Source: Candidatus Electrothrix sp. GW3-4 | GTDB taxonomy: Bacteria > Desulfobacterota > Desulfobulbia > Desulfobulbales > Desulfobulbaceae | Assembly: GCF_037902255.1 (NCBI RefSeq) | Contig: NZ_CP147990.1 | Span: 4,530,001 to 4,562,000 of the forward strand | DNA: 32,000 nucleotides | Direction: 5' to 3' | Part shown: positions 12,001 through 18,000 of the stretch, in pieces | How the letters are laid out: each line of letters begins with the position of its first letter | How positions within the stretch are numbered: position 1 is the first letter of the stretch | Made by a program: the position numbers

Positions 12001-15000
12001 TCTTTGTCGGTATGCGGCCGGACACGGTTGCGGTGGTCAATTATGATGACCCCCATGTGCGCCGATTGCCCAAGAGGTCAGAGAAGATCATCGGCTTTGC
12101 CTGTACCCCTGCCGGGCGTCGTCAGAGACCTGTTGTTCGGGCTACCCGCATTCAGGATCTCGGGGCAGAGGGGATGCGTTTTACCCTCCATATCGGGGCG
12201 TGGCAAGAGCGGATCAATGTTCGGGCTCCAGGTATGCATAGCGTCAGCAACTGCCTGGCTGCTGCGGCCATGGCCTATGCTGGTGGGGTTGCTCCGGAAA
12301 CCATCGTCGCGGCCCTGAGTGGGTTTCAGAGTACGGACAAACGGATGGAGATGATGATCCTACCCGGCGGGGTGCGAGTATGCAATGATTGCTATAATGC
12401 CAATCCAGGTTCAATGGTTGCGTCCCTGCGTACAGTGAGTGGCTTTGGTCAGGATTGCCGTCACATTGCCTTGCTGGGTGATATGTTAGAGCTGGGCGCT
12501 GAGGCTGAAACAGCCCATGCCGAGGTCGGGCGGCAGGCAGCGGAACTGGGGTATGATCAGTTAGCGGTCATTGGTAATTTTGCAGGTCAGGTGGCCCAGG
12601 GTGCCCAGCAGGCCGGGATGGCAGAAGAACGGGTCCATGTCTTTGGCGATACCCATACAATGGCCGACTGGCTCTATCAAGAGATGATTCAGGCCGGGGT
12701 CAGGGCAGATGACTGGTTGCTGCTCAAGGGCTCCCGGGGCATGCGGATGGAGACAGTGTTGCAGGAGATAGAACAGCGGTTTGCCACTGGTATCAACGAA
12801 AAGGAATATCGATAGAGTTATGTTTTACCATTTGCTGTATCCCCTGCACACCCAGTTCAGTGCCTTTAATGTCTTTCGTTATCTGACCTTTCGTTCTATC
12901 GGGGCGGCGGTCACGGCCTTTCTTATCCTCTTTCTTTCCGGGCCATTCTTTATCCGCTGGCTGCAAAGGAAACAGATCGGGCAGGTGGTGCGTGACGACG
13001 GACCAGAGACCCATTTCAGCAAGAAGGGCGTGCCCACCATGGGGGGGCTCCTGATCCTGCTTGCCATTGCTGGCTCGACCCTGCTCTGGGCTGATCTCAG
13101 TAATAGTCTGGTGTGGGTCTGTCTGTTGCTGACCCTGTTTTACGGCCTGATCGGTTCGGTGGATGACTGGAAAAAGGTCACCAAGAGCAATACCGAGGGG
13201 TTGTCGGCCCGAGGCAAGTTAATTCTTCAGGTGACTGGTGCCTGTACGGTTGGTCTTTTTCTCCACCTCCATCCTGGCTATGACGGCAATCTGAGTCTGC
13301 CTTTTTTAAAATGGATTCAGCCTGATCTGGGTTGGTGGTACATCCCCTTTGCCGTGGCCGTGATTGTTGGCTCCTCCAATGCGGTTAATCTGACCGACGG
13401 CCTCGACGGTCTGGCCAGCGGCACGGTGATGATCACGGCGGCGGTCTATTTTATCTTTGCCTATGCAGCGGGTAATGTGCTGATCTCGGATTATTTGCAG
13501 CTGCCCTATGTGCTGGGTGCCGGTGAGGTGGCCGTGTTCTGCGGCACCATTGTCGGGGCCTGTCTTGGTTTTCTCTGGTTCAACTCCTATCCGGCCCAGA
13601 TTTTTATGGGGGATGTGGGTTCGCTGGCCCTGGGCGGGGCCTTGGGAGCAGTGGCGATCATCATTAAGCAGGAGTTTCTCCTCGCCATTGCCGGTGGTAT
13701 CTTTGTGATGGAGGTGCTGTCGGTGATTATGCAGGTGGGGTATTTCAAGATGACTGGTGGAAAGCGCATCTTTCTTATGGCACCGTTTCATCATCATTTT
13801 GAGAAGAAGGGGTGGGCAGAGCCTCGGGTGGTGATTCGTTTTTGGATTATTTCTATTATTCTTGGGTTGATGGCGCTGGCTACTTTGAAGTTGCGGTAGA
13901 TTTAAAATCGGGAACATGTATAGGGTGTATATTGGTCAACAAATTAATTTCCGCTGACTATCTGCGGCGGCCACTAAAATTTTAACCATATTTATTTTAC
14001 AGGGAAAGATCCTGTCAGTGCTGTGCGTCCTGGCGGGGTACAAGTGAAATTTTGACCAATATGCATCCGTTCCCATTCCTTACTGAGTTATGAAAATGCC
14101 AACTGCTGAAGATTTCCTTGAATTAGAAACAGCAAACCAAGTTGCGGCATTTTTCGGCAAAACTTATAAAGAAATTTCAGAAATATTTTATCAGACGCCA
14201 AAGAAATACAAGTATAGAAAATTCGAAGTGAACAAACGAAGTGGTGGTACGAGAATTATTTATGCACCTAATAAAAAGATCAAAGAGATACAACAGGTGT
14301 TGGCTCAGATTTTATTGGAGATATATAAACAGAAACCTTCTGTTCACGGTTTTTGTAGAAATAGAAGTATCGTGACAAATGCTAAGCAGCATCTTAATAA
14401 AAAACATATTTTTAATATAGATATTCAGGATTTTTTTCCGTCTATTCATTTTGGTAGAGTAAAATATTTATTTGCTAAGGCACCATTTTCTCTTCCTCAT
14501 TCAGCAGCAACTGTATTGGCCCATATATGCTGCTTTGATAATATGTTGCCCCAAGGTGCTCCCACTTCACCAATAATTTCAAATTTAATATGCAGGAAAT
14601 TAGACACTTCGTTGCAAGAATTGGCTAAAAAACATAGTGGTACTTATACACGGTATGCGGATGATATTTCTTTTTCATTCACATGTCGCCAAAATCGGCT
14701 CCCCAGAGATATTATTATTGTTAGGCCATCTGGAATAGAGCCTGGAGAGAAATTGGTAAATAAAATCGAAGAAAATGGGTTTAAAATAAATAATAAAAAA
14801 AGCAGATTATGCACAGGGAATAATCGTTTTGAAGTTACAGGGATAACTGTTAATGAATTTCCAAATGTAAGAAGGGCGTTTGTTCAGCAGATTAAATCAA
14901 TGATCTACGCTTGGGAAGAACATGGGTATGAGAAAGCTGAAATTGAATTTCATAGTCGATGGTACTTTCATAACCGGGGAACTGATCAAAAAGCTTCATT

Positions 15001-18000
15001 CAAGAACGTTGTCAGAGGGAAATTGTTATTTCTTCATATGGTTAGAGGTGATAGGGATAAAATATATATTAATTTAGCAAAACGTTTTAACAAGCTGATA
15101 CCAGCACAAGAACGGCCCCTTCCTTACGTAGAGGCAACTGACGAGGAGAAAGATATTTTCAATACTCTATGGGTTCTAGAAACTTTATATGATGACGAAC
15201 ATGGAGAGATCATTGCCAATCATGGTACCGGATTCATGTTGAAAGATGTTGGTTTGGTTACTTGTGCTCATGTTGTCGCTAAAAGAGAAGATATACACAA
15301 AATAACTGAAGCATTTAGGCATGACCGACCACATGAAAAATACACAATAAAAGTAACTAAGTTTTCTGTTGAGCGAGATTTAGCTATTGTGGAGCTATGT
15401 TCCCAAACAAATAAAGAGAAAGTTAATATTTCGGAATGTCTTTTGCCCTCTCCAAATAATGTTAAACAGAAAGATTCTATTTCATTGTATGGATTTCCAG
15501 CATATAAAACTGGACAAACACCATATGTTGCAGACGGCAAGGTAGCTTCTAAATTTGCCACGCATGGAATTCAAAAATTTGAGATAACGACTCCGATTAG
15601 GGAGGGTAATAGTGGTGGTCCTGTTTTAAATATGAAAAATGAAGTTATAGGGATAGCAGCTGAAGGTGCCCGAAAAGAATCAGGTAATAATGCAGTGATA
15701 TCAATTGGCGAGTTAAGCAAAGTTCCTGAAGTAAAAAAATAACAAACCTGAATTTGTCGTTAGGGATGTAGGGTATTATGGAGTTCCAAGTCGGTGACAA
15801 AGTTGTCTGGATGAAACGGATACCCGGCGGTGATTATGTGTATCCCGTAGCGGGTAAGGTTTTGGGATTCACAGAAAAACGGGTAAAGATTGAAGCCGAT
15901 GATGACGGCGATATTGGCATACGATATGTCCAACGTGAAAATCTCCAAAAGTTAGACTGACCGGCTGATTGCTCCCTTGTCGGCACGAATTTGCCGTTTA
16001 CATCACTCCAAAGTCAATCGGAATTGATACGATGTTAATTTGAATCATCCCAATTCCAGTTGGAAGCAACACGGTTCCAATGTGAATTACCCCATTTTAA
16101 ACTGGAATCAAGGCGATTCCAATCGGAAATGGCCCAATGTCAATTGGAATCAGGGCAATTCCTGTTAACATTGAAGCGATTACAACAGGAATCAAACCAA
16201 TTCCAATTGGAATTACGATGATTCCGGTGTGCATCGGGTTGATTCCAGCGTGATTTACACCGAAACAGCTGGATATTTGTTAGAAAAATATGTAGTAGAA
16301 GTTTAAGGATGGCCCGTTTGGATGAAACAAAAGCGGGCTGAGGTTGTGCATATCCAAACGGTTGAAGATCAGCTTGAATTTAAAGCAATGAAAAGCCGGA
16401 TCAAGGAGCTGGAATCGGTATTGGCGCAAAGCGTTCTTGAAAACCGGATGTTGGAAACCACGATAGAAGTAGCCGATCAATCATTGGGCATTGATATTAA
16501 AAAAAATTTCGGGAGGAAATTATAACCCAGGCAGCCGAAAACCAACTCATCGTGGAACTGGTCAGGGCCATCCGCCAGCATCACCCACGTATGGGCGGGC
16601 GAAAACTGCATTACGAGCTACAGGATTCGGTGGCCGCCTTGGGTATTTCCAAGGGCAGAGACGCGTTTTTCAAGCTGTTATCAGCACATAACCTACTGGT
16701 TCCAACCAGACTCAGCCGTCGCAGAACCACACATGCAGGCTTGTGGCGATGTTCCAATCTGTTGATTGATTTAACCATTACCCACGTCCATCAGGCCTGG
16801 GTTGGTGACATCACCTATATCACGACCGAGGCAGGATTTGTTTATCTGGCTTTACTGACCGATGTTTTTTCTCGCTTTATTGTCGGCTTCGATCTCTCGT
16901 CGTCGTTTGCGGTTGAAGGGTGTGACCGGGCGTTGAAACAGGCGATAGCCCAGGCCAACGGTGCTGATTTGCGTGGGCTGATCCATCATTCCGACCATGG
17001 GGTGCAATACACCGCCTGGCTGTACCGGGAGCGATTGCAAAAGATGGAGATACGTTCCAGCATGGGAGAAGTGGGCAACTGTTATGAGAACGCCATGGCT
17101 GAGCGAGTGAATGGGATTTTAAAAGGAGAATACGGCCTTGATGACCTTTTCGTTGATAAGGAACATGCTCAGAAAGCTGTGCGGGAAGCTGTTTGGCTAT
17201 ACAATTATGAACGACCTCATTTGGCACTCAACTATGGCAAGCCTGCAGAGATTTATTTTGAGAAAATTGATGTAAAGTAGTTACTATTTTGGTGTCAACA
17301 TATTTCAGGACTTGACAGTTCCCAAGCTCCGGTTTGGGAATTGTTTTTTCCTGAAGCTCTGCTTCTCAGTTTGCTGTCTAGGCGCCAGTACAAAAACGTC
17401 CCGTCCATCTGTAATATCCTTTCCCTCTCCTCTCAGTAATCCGACTTTACACGATTTTTTTCTTTACTTTTTTGTAACAGAAGAGTATGCATTCCTGATG
17501 TGCTGAGAAATTTTGCAAAGGATTGATTACCCTTAGCGGAGGAAAGGGCCATGTCGGAGAATAAGATTCCAGAGAGTGGGACGCAGGAAGGAGAAAGCAA
17601 GCAAGAGAAAAATCCTATGGCCGCTCCGGCCATTGGTCTGCCCAAAGGTGGCGGGGCTATCAAGGGCATGGGTGAGAAATTCGCTGCCAATCCGGTTACT
17701 GGCACTGGTTCGATGTCCGTGCCCCTTGCTCTCAGTCCGGGACGGGCCGGTTTCGGCCCTCAGCTCTCCCTCTCTTATGATTCCGGTTCCGGCAACGGCC
17801 CTTTCGGTTTTGGCTGGAGCCTCTCTCTCCCCGCCATCACCCGTAAGACCGACAAGGGCCTGCCGCAGTACAACGATGCTACCGAATCTGACGTGTTCAT
17901 TCTTTCCGGGGCGGAAGATTTAGTCCCTGTCCTCAATTCGAACGGCGAACCTTGGAGCGAAACGCACCCTGTTGGCGACATCAGCTATCTTGTCCGCCGC

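Follow-up and report, generated by a model that had tools for sequence, protein, structure and literature searches.

The reverse transcriptase-protease gene and its class

We analyzed a window, that is, the whole stretch of 32,000 nucleotides (nt) taken from the cable bacterium Candidatus Electrothrix sp. GW3-4 (Desulfobulbaceae; NZ_CP147990.1, positions 4,530,001-4,562,000), and all coordinates given below are those of the window. Directly after mraY, which is preceded by the dcw genes rsmH, ftsI, and murE-murF, the window carries a retron made up of a noncoding RNA (ncRNA) leader and a single gene for a reverse transcriptase (RT) fused to a serine protease. We are nearly certain that this element is a canonical type XI retron, in which a clade-8 retron RT is joined to an S1 serine protease. 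Similarity of the leader to relatives begins at about the mraY stop codon, while similarity to relatives stops exactly at the stop codon of the RT-protease gene (position 15742), and these limits define a unit of ~1.85 kb (13897-15742). The G+C content is 0.34 to 0.36 across 14001-15500 versus ~0.55 in the flanks, as expected from the AT-rich block mentioned in a preliminary description of this DNA. The same description had placed the retron at 13900-15960; the retron is indeed found there, but it ends at 15742, and the 60-amino-acid (aa) open reading frame (ORF) at 15778-15960 does not belong to it. The locus represents a complete, probably functional type XI retron that was acquired horizontally.

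The longest ORF on the forward strand (14090-15742, 550 aa) is the one singled out earlier, and its translation contains every motif quoted for it, namely, NAKQH, YTRYADDISFSF (the YADD region), and RFEVTGITVN in the RT half, and TCAHVV, DLAIVEL, and GNSGGPV in the protease half. The earlier start at 14090 holds for the longest ORF only; the second ATG, at 14096, is the likelier start, because relatives begin at the equivalent position, and the protein is then 548 aa long. An identical 548-aa protein is present on a database record from Candidatus Electrothrix sp. GW3-4. The domain search proposed for the two halves returned RVT_1 and Trypsin_2, respectively (Table 1). In an alignment of 37 homologues with 39 to 79% identity to the query, the protease residues H394, D430, and S508, the GNSGGP motif, and the RT residues Y189, D191, D192, H101, and T250 are invariant, and both halves therefore appear to be active. 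An AlphaFold model built on the 37 homologues has a mean predicted local distance difference test score of 88.4 and is confident within the domains; residues 285-370 link RT to protease and include a predicted unstructured stretch at about residues 337-350. A Foldseek search with this model placed Eco2 at the top (E = 2e-26, 32% identity), followed by other retron RTs and then by HtrA, Deg, and V8 proteases. By sequence, the nearest solved RTs are Ec67/Eco2 (E = 4e-53), Ec86 (1e-32), and further retron RTs, and the nearest solved proteases to the C-terminal half are of the V8/Spl and Deg/HtrA types.

The subtype, which the preliminary description had left unassigned, is given by the PADLOC profile RT-Protease_XI, which matches residues 7-545 with E = 1.5e-181 and 603 bits; the runner-up profiles describe other clade-8 fusions (RT-TIR_XII, 406 bits; RT-Toprim_I-C, 370 bits). 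At E <= 1e-20, the database contains more than 4600 matching proteins, and the best 120 of them are nearly all full-length RT-protease fusions. This single-gene architecture has already been catalogued as type XI (Mestre et al. 2020, PMC7736814), and the locus is an intact, typical representative of this large class, found in a new host and not surprising in itself. The view that the architecture had been catalogued but not dissected mechanistically agrees with Mestre 2020 and with a 2026 preprint by Toro; a mechanistic study did not turn up in the searchable literature.

It could be argued that the gene encodes a nonretron enzyme, either a defense RT of the abortive infection (Abi), unknown group (UG), or defense-associated RT (DRT) type or a group II intron RT, which happens to be fused to a protease. 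Partial matches to the profiles of group II intron RT (57 bits), Drt2 (38 bits), and Drt3a (38 bits) point weakly in this direction, but all of them stay below 60 bits and far under the respective curated cutoffs of 300, 390, and 200 bits, whereas retron profiles score 200 to 600 bits. The retron-specific NAxxH and VTG motifs are kept, the best solved relatives by sequence are retron RTs, and the gene is preceded by a covarying a1/a2 ncRNA (see below). A search of Rfam produced chance-level matches only, with no retron msr family and no group II intron RNA or other family among them. We consider this explanation refuted for practical purposes, and the earlier description of a retron RT fused to a chymotrypsin-fold protease is borne out by the full-length profile matches, the solved relatives, and the ncRNA.

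Table 1. Positions of the elements of the retron in window coordinates
Feature	Position	Strand	Basis or remark
Conserved block upstream of ncRNA, -10-like	13897-13909	+	Leader alignment; here TAGATTTAAAATC, relatives GTTATATTTGAAAAT; overlaps mraY stop
Outer helix, 5' strand GGGAAC	13910-13915	+	Duplex prediction; pairs with 14069-14074
a1 arm GGGTGTATATTGGTCAA	13923-13939	+	Inverted repeat, covariation
Junction CAAAUUAAUUU, arm to hairpin, 11 nt	13940-13950	+	Holds 5' strand of inner helix
Inner helix, 5' strand	AAAUU 13941-13945 or AAUUU 13946-13950	+	Two registers possible in the window
Core msr hairpin P1, CCGCUG-A-C / UAUCU loop / G-CGGCGG, 7 bp, bulged A	13951-13970	+	RNAalifold
Single-stranded spacer after P1, CCACUAAAAU	13971-13980	+	Putative RT stop, by homology with terminal 1278
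Putative msd, 66 nt, hypervariable	13981-14046	+	Homology with RT-DNA boundaries of terminal 1278
Conserved AAGUG	14042-14046	+	AAG before a2 invariant in 17/17 members
Inner helix, 3' strand AAAUU	14047-14051	+	Alignment
a2 arm TTGACCAATATGCATCC	14052-14068	+	Inverted repeat, duplex prediction, covariation
Outer helix, 3' strand GTTCCC	14069-14074	+	Duplex prediction
RT-protease gene	14096-15742	+	548 aa from start conserved in relatives (MPTAEDF...)
Reverse transcriptase domain RVT_1	14228-14851	+	Pfam, residues 47-254, E = 6e-24
RT motifs	NAKQH 14378-14392 (residues 97-101); YADD 14654-14665; VTG 14834-14842	+	Translation
Serine protease domain Trypsin_2	15224-15655	+	Pfam, residues 379-522, E = 6e-19
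Protease triad codons	H394 15269-15271; D430 15377-15379; S508 15611-15613	+	Translation and homologue alignment

The leader is a retron ncRNA

The leader at 13910-14074 is a real retron ncRNA of ~165 nt, closed by the a1 and a2 arms and containing the hairpin P1 as its msr part. Its predicted fold has an energy of -59.8 kcal/mol (z = -4.46), and 0 of 200 shuffled sequences are as stable. The a1/a2-type inverted repeats previously noticed in the leader correspond to a covarying 17-nt repeat, which is lengthened by the complementary GGGAAC and GTTCCC strands of an outer helix; in relatives, the pairing of the outer helix is kept by one-sided changes yielding A-U or G-U pairs.

The structure is supported by comparison with relatives, whose loci are designated by L numbers. 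The arms of 13 loci belong to no fewer than seven unrelated families of sequence and yet are always complementary, as in the pairs ATTGGAAGAGGTA/TACCTCTTCCAAT (L009), TTTGCGCGTGCCAGTTTT/AAAACTGGCATGCGCAAA (L095), and GGGGCGCATACTA/TAGTATGTGCCCC (L100). Over 17 loci, all 14 pairs of the arm helix vary on both sides, with 92% of the alignment cells paired. The corresponding value for P1 is 99%, and its compensatory changes include CCAU:AUGG, CCGA:UCGG, CCGU:ACGG, CCAC:GUGG, UCGC:GCGA, and CCUAUG:CAUAGG; RNAalifold, run unguided, recovers both the arm helix and P1. An alternative inner register of P1 (CCGC:GCGG with a 9-nt loop) was rejected because the outer pairs vary on both sides in L095, L100, L103, and L105. 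Between arms and hairpin, an inner helix covaries as well (AAUU:AAUU, GUUU:AAAC, AUUU:AAAU, GGGUUU:AAACCC, GAUU:AAUC, and UAUU:AAUA); this helix was judged from an alignment read by eye, because the automated search chose inconsistent registers.

When the 17 loci were aligned with a covariance model, 94.7% of the cells were paired versus 69.7% after shuffling (0 of 500 shuffles reached the observed value), 17 of 21 pairs varied on both sides, and the covariation score was 0.70 compared with 0.10 to 0.17 when the partners were slid by 1 to 3 columns, figures that are to be read with the proviso that the model fits the alignment to the structure and so favors pairing, although the unrelated arm sequences are independent of the fitting. 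The ncRNA of the window scores 132 bits against the model and keeps all conserved elements. In the relatives, the model matches on the RT strand and ends a few to a few tens of nt 5' of the RT start, the exception being a weak match in L049 (E = 0.76, minus strand). The leaders are better conserved than the proteins: where proteins are 68 to 75% identical, the ~55 nt 3' of the left arm are identical.

The informative loci (44 to 79% protein identity) were obtained through exact-protein look-ups. An alignment-based metagenome scan used generic RT motifs and mostly gave relatives at <=43% identity, a scan of a genome collection with the single protein gave archaeal protease-domain matches only, and a motif scan of viral contigs gave no match. 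No match to either of our two RNA models was found in a further group of loci (L011-L013, L016-L018, L021, L025, L027, L033, L034, L036, L038-L041, L043, L047, L054, L106, and L107), in which most protein matches span both the RT and protease halves, and it follows that type XI must use one or more additional ncRNA families. Terminal 1235 of the published census (see below) looks like an example of such a family. Separately, weak to moderate RNA-model matches occur 5' of the RT (~2300-2470) in L019, L023, L026, and L030, where the protein match covers the RT half only; members of the RNA family may also occur in clade-8 retrons that have no protease.

Link to the published census and predicted template

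The ncRNA of type XI has been described as not recognizable or not validated (Mestre 2020, PMC7736814; 2026 survey). The census by Khan et al. (PMC10849725) states that ncRNAs were validated for "clade 8, type XI," and its supplement lists three type XI retrons, among them terminal 1265 (Pseudoalteromonas), with editing in human cells at 1.5x Eco1, and terminal 1278 (Pseudomonas), whose reverse-transcribed DNA (RT-DNA) was sequenced. The covariance-model match in L104 contains the ncRNA of terminal 1265 base for base, and the window ncRNA thus belongs to a family that has been used experimentally for type XI. The ncRNA of terminal 1278 shares the architecture of the window ncRNA, and its RT-DNA starts across from the final G of AAGAG and stops 10 nt past P1.

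By homology with these boundaries, G14046 would be the first templated nucleotide, and the predicted RT-DNA of ~66 nt would read 5'-CACTTGTACCCCGCC...GGTTAAA-3', with CACTTGTACC as its 5' start. The putative msd at 13981-14041 and its equivalents in 16 loci are hypervariable even among close relatives; the msd regions of classical retrons differ in forming long hairpins (see below). As a separate observation, the RT-DNA of terminal 1235 as printed runs into a2, minus one base opposite the junction G, the point at which the RT-DNA of terminal 1278 starts.

Neighboring genes and genomic setting

No accessory gene is conserved with the retron, and each homologous locus compared has different genes downstream; this leaves the fused protease as the sole candidate effector, which is also what had been proposed from the lack of a separate effector gene at this locus. 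The 60-aa ORF at 15778-15960 encodes a conserved small protein with 60 homologues (62 to 93% identity, one of them in Ca. Electrothrix aestuarii) and a weak, subthreshold match to a beta-barrel domain. It was rejected as a partner of the retron, since no homologue lies beside any other RT-protease locus compared.

In relatives, the neighbors include an OLD-family nuclease, an nSTAND ATPase, a restriction endonuclease, integrases, and insertion sequence (IS) elements, which are typical of defense or mobile islands. In Nitrosococcus wardiae and on a Haematobacter plasmid, two unrelated hosts, the gene immediately 3' of the RT-protease gene, on the same strand, encodes an OLD-family ATPase/TOPRIM nuclease (L094, 4412-6142, and L106, 4136-6430); this adjacency may be due to chance within defense islands, or the nuclease may be an optional partner.

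In the window, the retron is followed by the remnant of an IS3-family transposase (16322-17280), with an integrase-core (rve) ORF at 16552-17280 and a short ORF at 16322-16525 before it; the remnant identifies the region behind mraY as a mobile island. At 16040-16260, between this remnant and the 60-aa ORF, there are about 10 copies of a ~21-nt unit with the palindromic core TTCCAATTGGAA, which could be protein-binding sites or the remains of a mobile-element end. Farther downstream, 17551-25425 encodes a 2624-aa protein with SpvB, TcdB-middle, FG-GAP, and RHS domains that resembles a toxin cocoon of the TcB-TcC type; the G+C content falls to 0.39 over 24501-25500, a segment spanning the last ~900 nt of this gene, as is expected for a swapped toxic tip. 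On the other side of the retron, murE and murF are apparently fused into a single ORF of 1036 aa (9705-12815) with two full sets of Mur ligase domains. No earlier retron linked to cable bacteria turned up in the searchable literature.

Proposed mechanism and alternative explanations

The best explanation overall, and one that we regard as probable, is that the locus is a type XI retron whose protease is restrained by multicopy single-stranded DNA (msDNA) until released by phage. Its core proposition, that msDNA keeps the fused protease inactive until phage brings about a change in the msDNA, is drawn by analogy and in our estimate falls a little short of an even chance. The analogy is with Eco2, in which msDNA scaffolds a trimer that cages a TOPRIM nuclease, the phage endonuclease DenB degrades the msDNA, and the freed nuclease cuts tRNAs (PMC12916289). 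Transferred to the present locus, the course of events would be as follows: (i) the RT, as its homologues suggest, would use the ncRNA as both primer and template, copying approximately 13981-14046 from opposite G14046; (ii) the single-stranded DNA product would, again as in homologues, stay bound to the RT; (iii) the RT-msDNA complex would hold the fused protease inactive; (iv) a phage factor would free the protease by degrading, modifying, or displacing the msDNA; and (v) the freed protease would cleave host or phage proteins, aborting infection, with the last three steps modeled on Eco2. Proteases of the HtrA type are controlled by their assembly state, a property that would suit a switch operated by msDNA.

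Several lines of evidence weigh against this explanation: (i) neither phage defense nor proteolytic activity was found for any type XI retron in the searchable literature; (ii) the reported RT-DNA yields of type XI are low, with 0.09x Eco1 by gel in one case (terminal 1235) and 0 by gel in another (PMC10849725); (iii) the msd is without a significantly stable hairpin in most members (z near 0) and has no common fold, so that, in contrast to Eco2, a cage formed by msDNA may not arise; (iv) the predicted template modeling score of the AlphaFold model is 0.52, and the relative arrangement of RT and protease is not fixed by the model; (v) a promoter scan revealed no consensus promoter at the -10-like block, in which TATATT has become TAGATT at the junction with the mraY stop codon, and expression may be weak or depend on read-through from the dcw operon; and (vi) the 11-nt junction that connects the a1 arm to the hairpin (13940-13950) lacks a G, the canonical branch position included, and a G is absent from this junction in 10 of 13 loci.

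The last point bears on priming. In classical retrons, the branching G directly follows the a1 arm. It is usually preceded by TTA (census, PMC10849725), and in Eco2 the branching nucleotide rG15 is followed by AUUU and the hairpin (cryo-electron microscopy; PMC12916289, PMC12405507). In the inner-helix register supported by covariation, the nucleotide facing the RT start is an A preceded by UUA, as it is in terminal 1278, and the distant members of the RNA family L023, L028, L029, L030, and L035 have a G at that position. Judging from these sequences, the branch nucleotide may be the A or else a G that lies within or precedes the helix, or the product may be unbranched. It is conceivable, if rather unlikely, that the main type XI lineage, this locus included, has departed from canonical G priming, using the 2'-OH of an A as intron lariats do or making an unbranched product, and that a poorly structured msDNA restrains the protease.

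Two further explanations accept the type XI retron but assign it another mode of action or none. In one of them, the protease would cut the fusion itself, releasing or maturing the RT or the protease, and immunity would come from another activity. V8/Spl proteases need a processed, free N terminus for activity; the nearest proteases by sequence are of this type, the fusion leaves the protease without such a terminus, and the stretch modeled as unstructured in the linker could serve as the cleavage site. By fold, however, the protease resembles HtrA/Deg proteases just as closely, and those depend on assembly rather than on cleavage for activation; other clade-8 retrons carry true effectors (TOPRIM and TIR) at the same position, and a released protease would have no conserved partner effector to activate. 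We regard self-cleavage as improbable. We consider it about equally improbable that this copy is a silent or decaying passenger, intact in sequence but unexpressed or nonfunctional, which landed after mraY without a promoter of its own. The altered -10-like block would fit such a history, as would a G+C content of 0.35 versus 0.55, which indicates recent arrival, and the adjoining IS remnant; a scan for promoters and terminators found sites no more numerous than in shuffled sequence. On the other hand, the ORF is not truncated and retains all catalytic residues, the ncRNA has kept its conserved elements and scores 132 bits against the family model, and the position directly 3' of an essential operon offers a ready source of transcription. 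The msDNA-restrained protease remains the explanation that we prefer.

Type XI is among the retron classes without a known target, trigger, or structure, and a protease effector would kill or arrest cells by a route other than that of the nucleases, NADases, and membrane proteins that have been studied. The present analysis adds a secondary structure of the type XI ncRNA that is backed by covariation, together with predicted template boundaries, which eases mutational tests, and the locus is compact and intact (~1.85 kb, one gene, one RNA). The link to cable bacteria is a modest point.

Comparison with known systems

Trypsin-like proteases are attached to immune sensors in nuclease-protease pairs (PMC12799240) and in metallo-beta-lactamase-protease modules (PMC12642450), which the present fusion resembles in this respect; unlike it, those modules activate a co-encoded latent effector, for which there is no conserved counterpart here. 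With HtrA/DegP/DegQ (S1C) and V8/Spl (S1B) proteases, the C-terminal half shares the fold, the catalytic triad, and the GNSGGP oxyanion-hole motif, but it differs from them in being cytoplasmic and tethered to an RT, with neither a PDZ domain nor a signal peptide, and it scores far below the HtrA/DegP family cutoffs.

Among retrons, Eco2/Ec67 (type I-C1; PMC12916289, PMC12405507) is the closest solved RT (32% identity over ~350 residues) and is likewise a single-polypeptide fusion of a clade-8 RT with an effector. Its msr is similarly laid out, with the arm, a short U-rich single strand, one hairpin, a ~10-nt single strand, and the template. The effector is a TOPRIM nuclease in Eco2 and a serine protease here, with no TOPRIM match, and only the RT half aligns to Ec67; moreover, Eco2 has its branching rG15 right after the arm, where the ncRNA of the window has no G, and its msd is a long hairpin, which is not predicted for the msd here. 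Type XII retrons are related through the RT half, over which RT-TIR_XII is the second-best profile (406 bits), and the type XII ncRNA of the census (PMC10849725) shares the UUUAAC junction and the AAG before a2, while the C-terminal domain is TIR in type XII and a protease here.

Compared with the tested type XI retrons, which come from Pseudomonas and Pseudoalteromonas, the host here is a cable bacterium, the arm sequences and the msd are unrelated, and the protein is 36 to 39% identical to plasmid-borne relatives of the tested retrons. Nevertheless, the element has the defining organization of type XI (PMC7736814; PADLOC RT-Protease_XI; census terminals 1235, 1265, and 1278), in which a clade-8 RT and a C-terminal trypsin-like protease are encoded by one gene, and its ncRNA has in common with that of terminals 1265 and 1278 the arms, the inner helix, the UUU-P1 hairpin, and AAGAG before a2.

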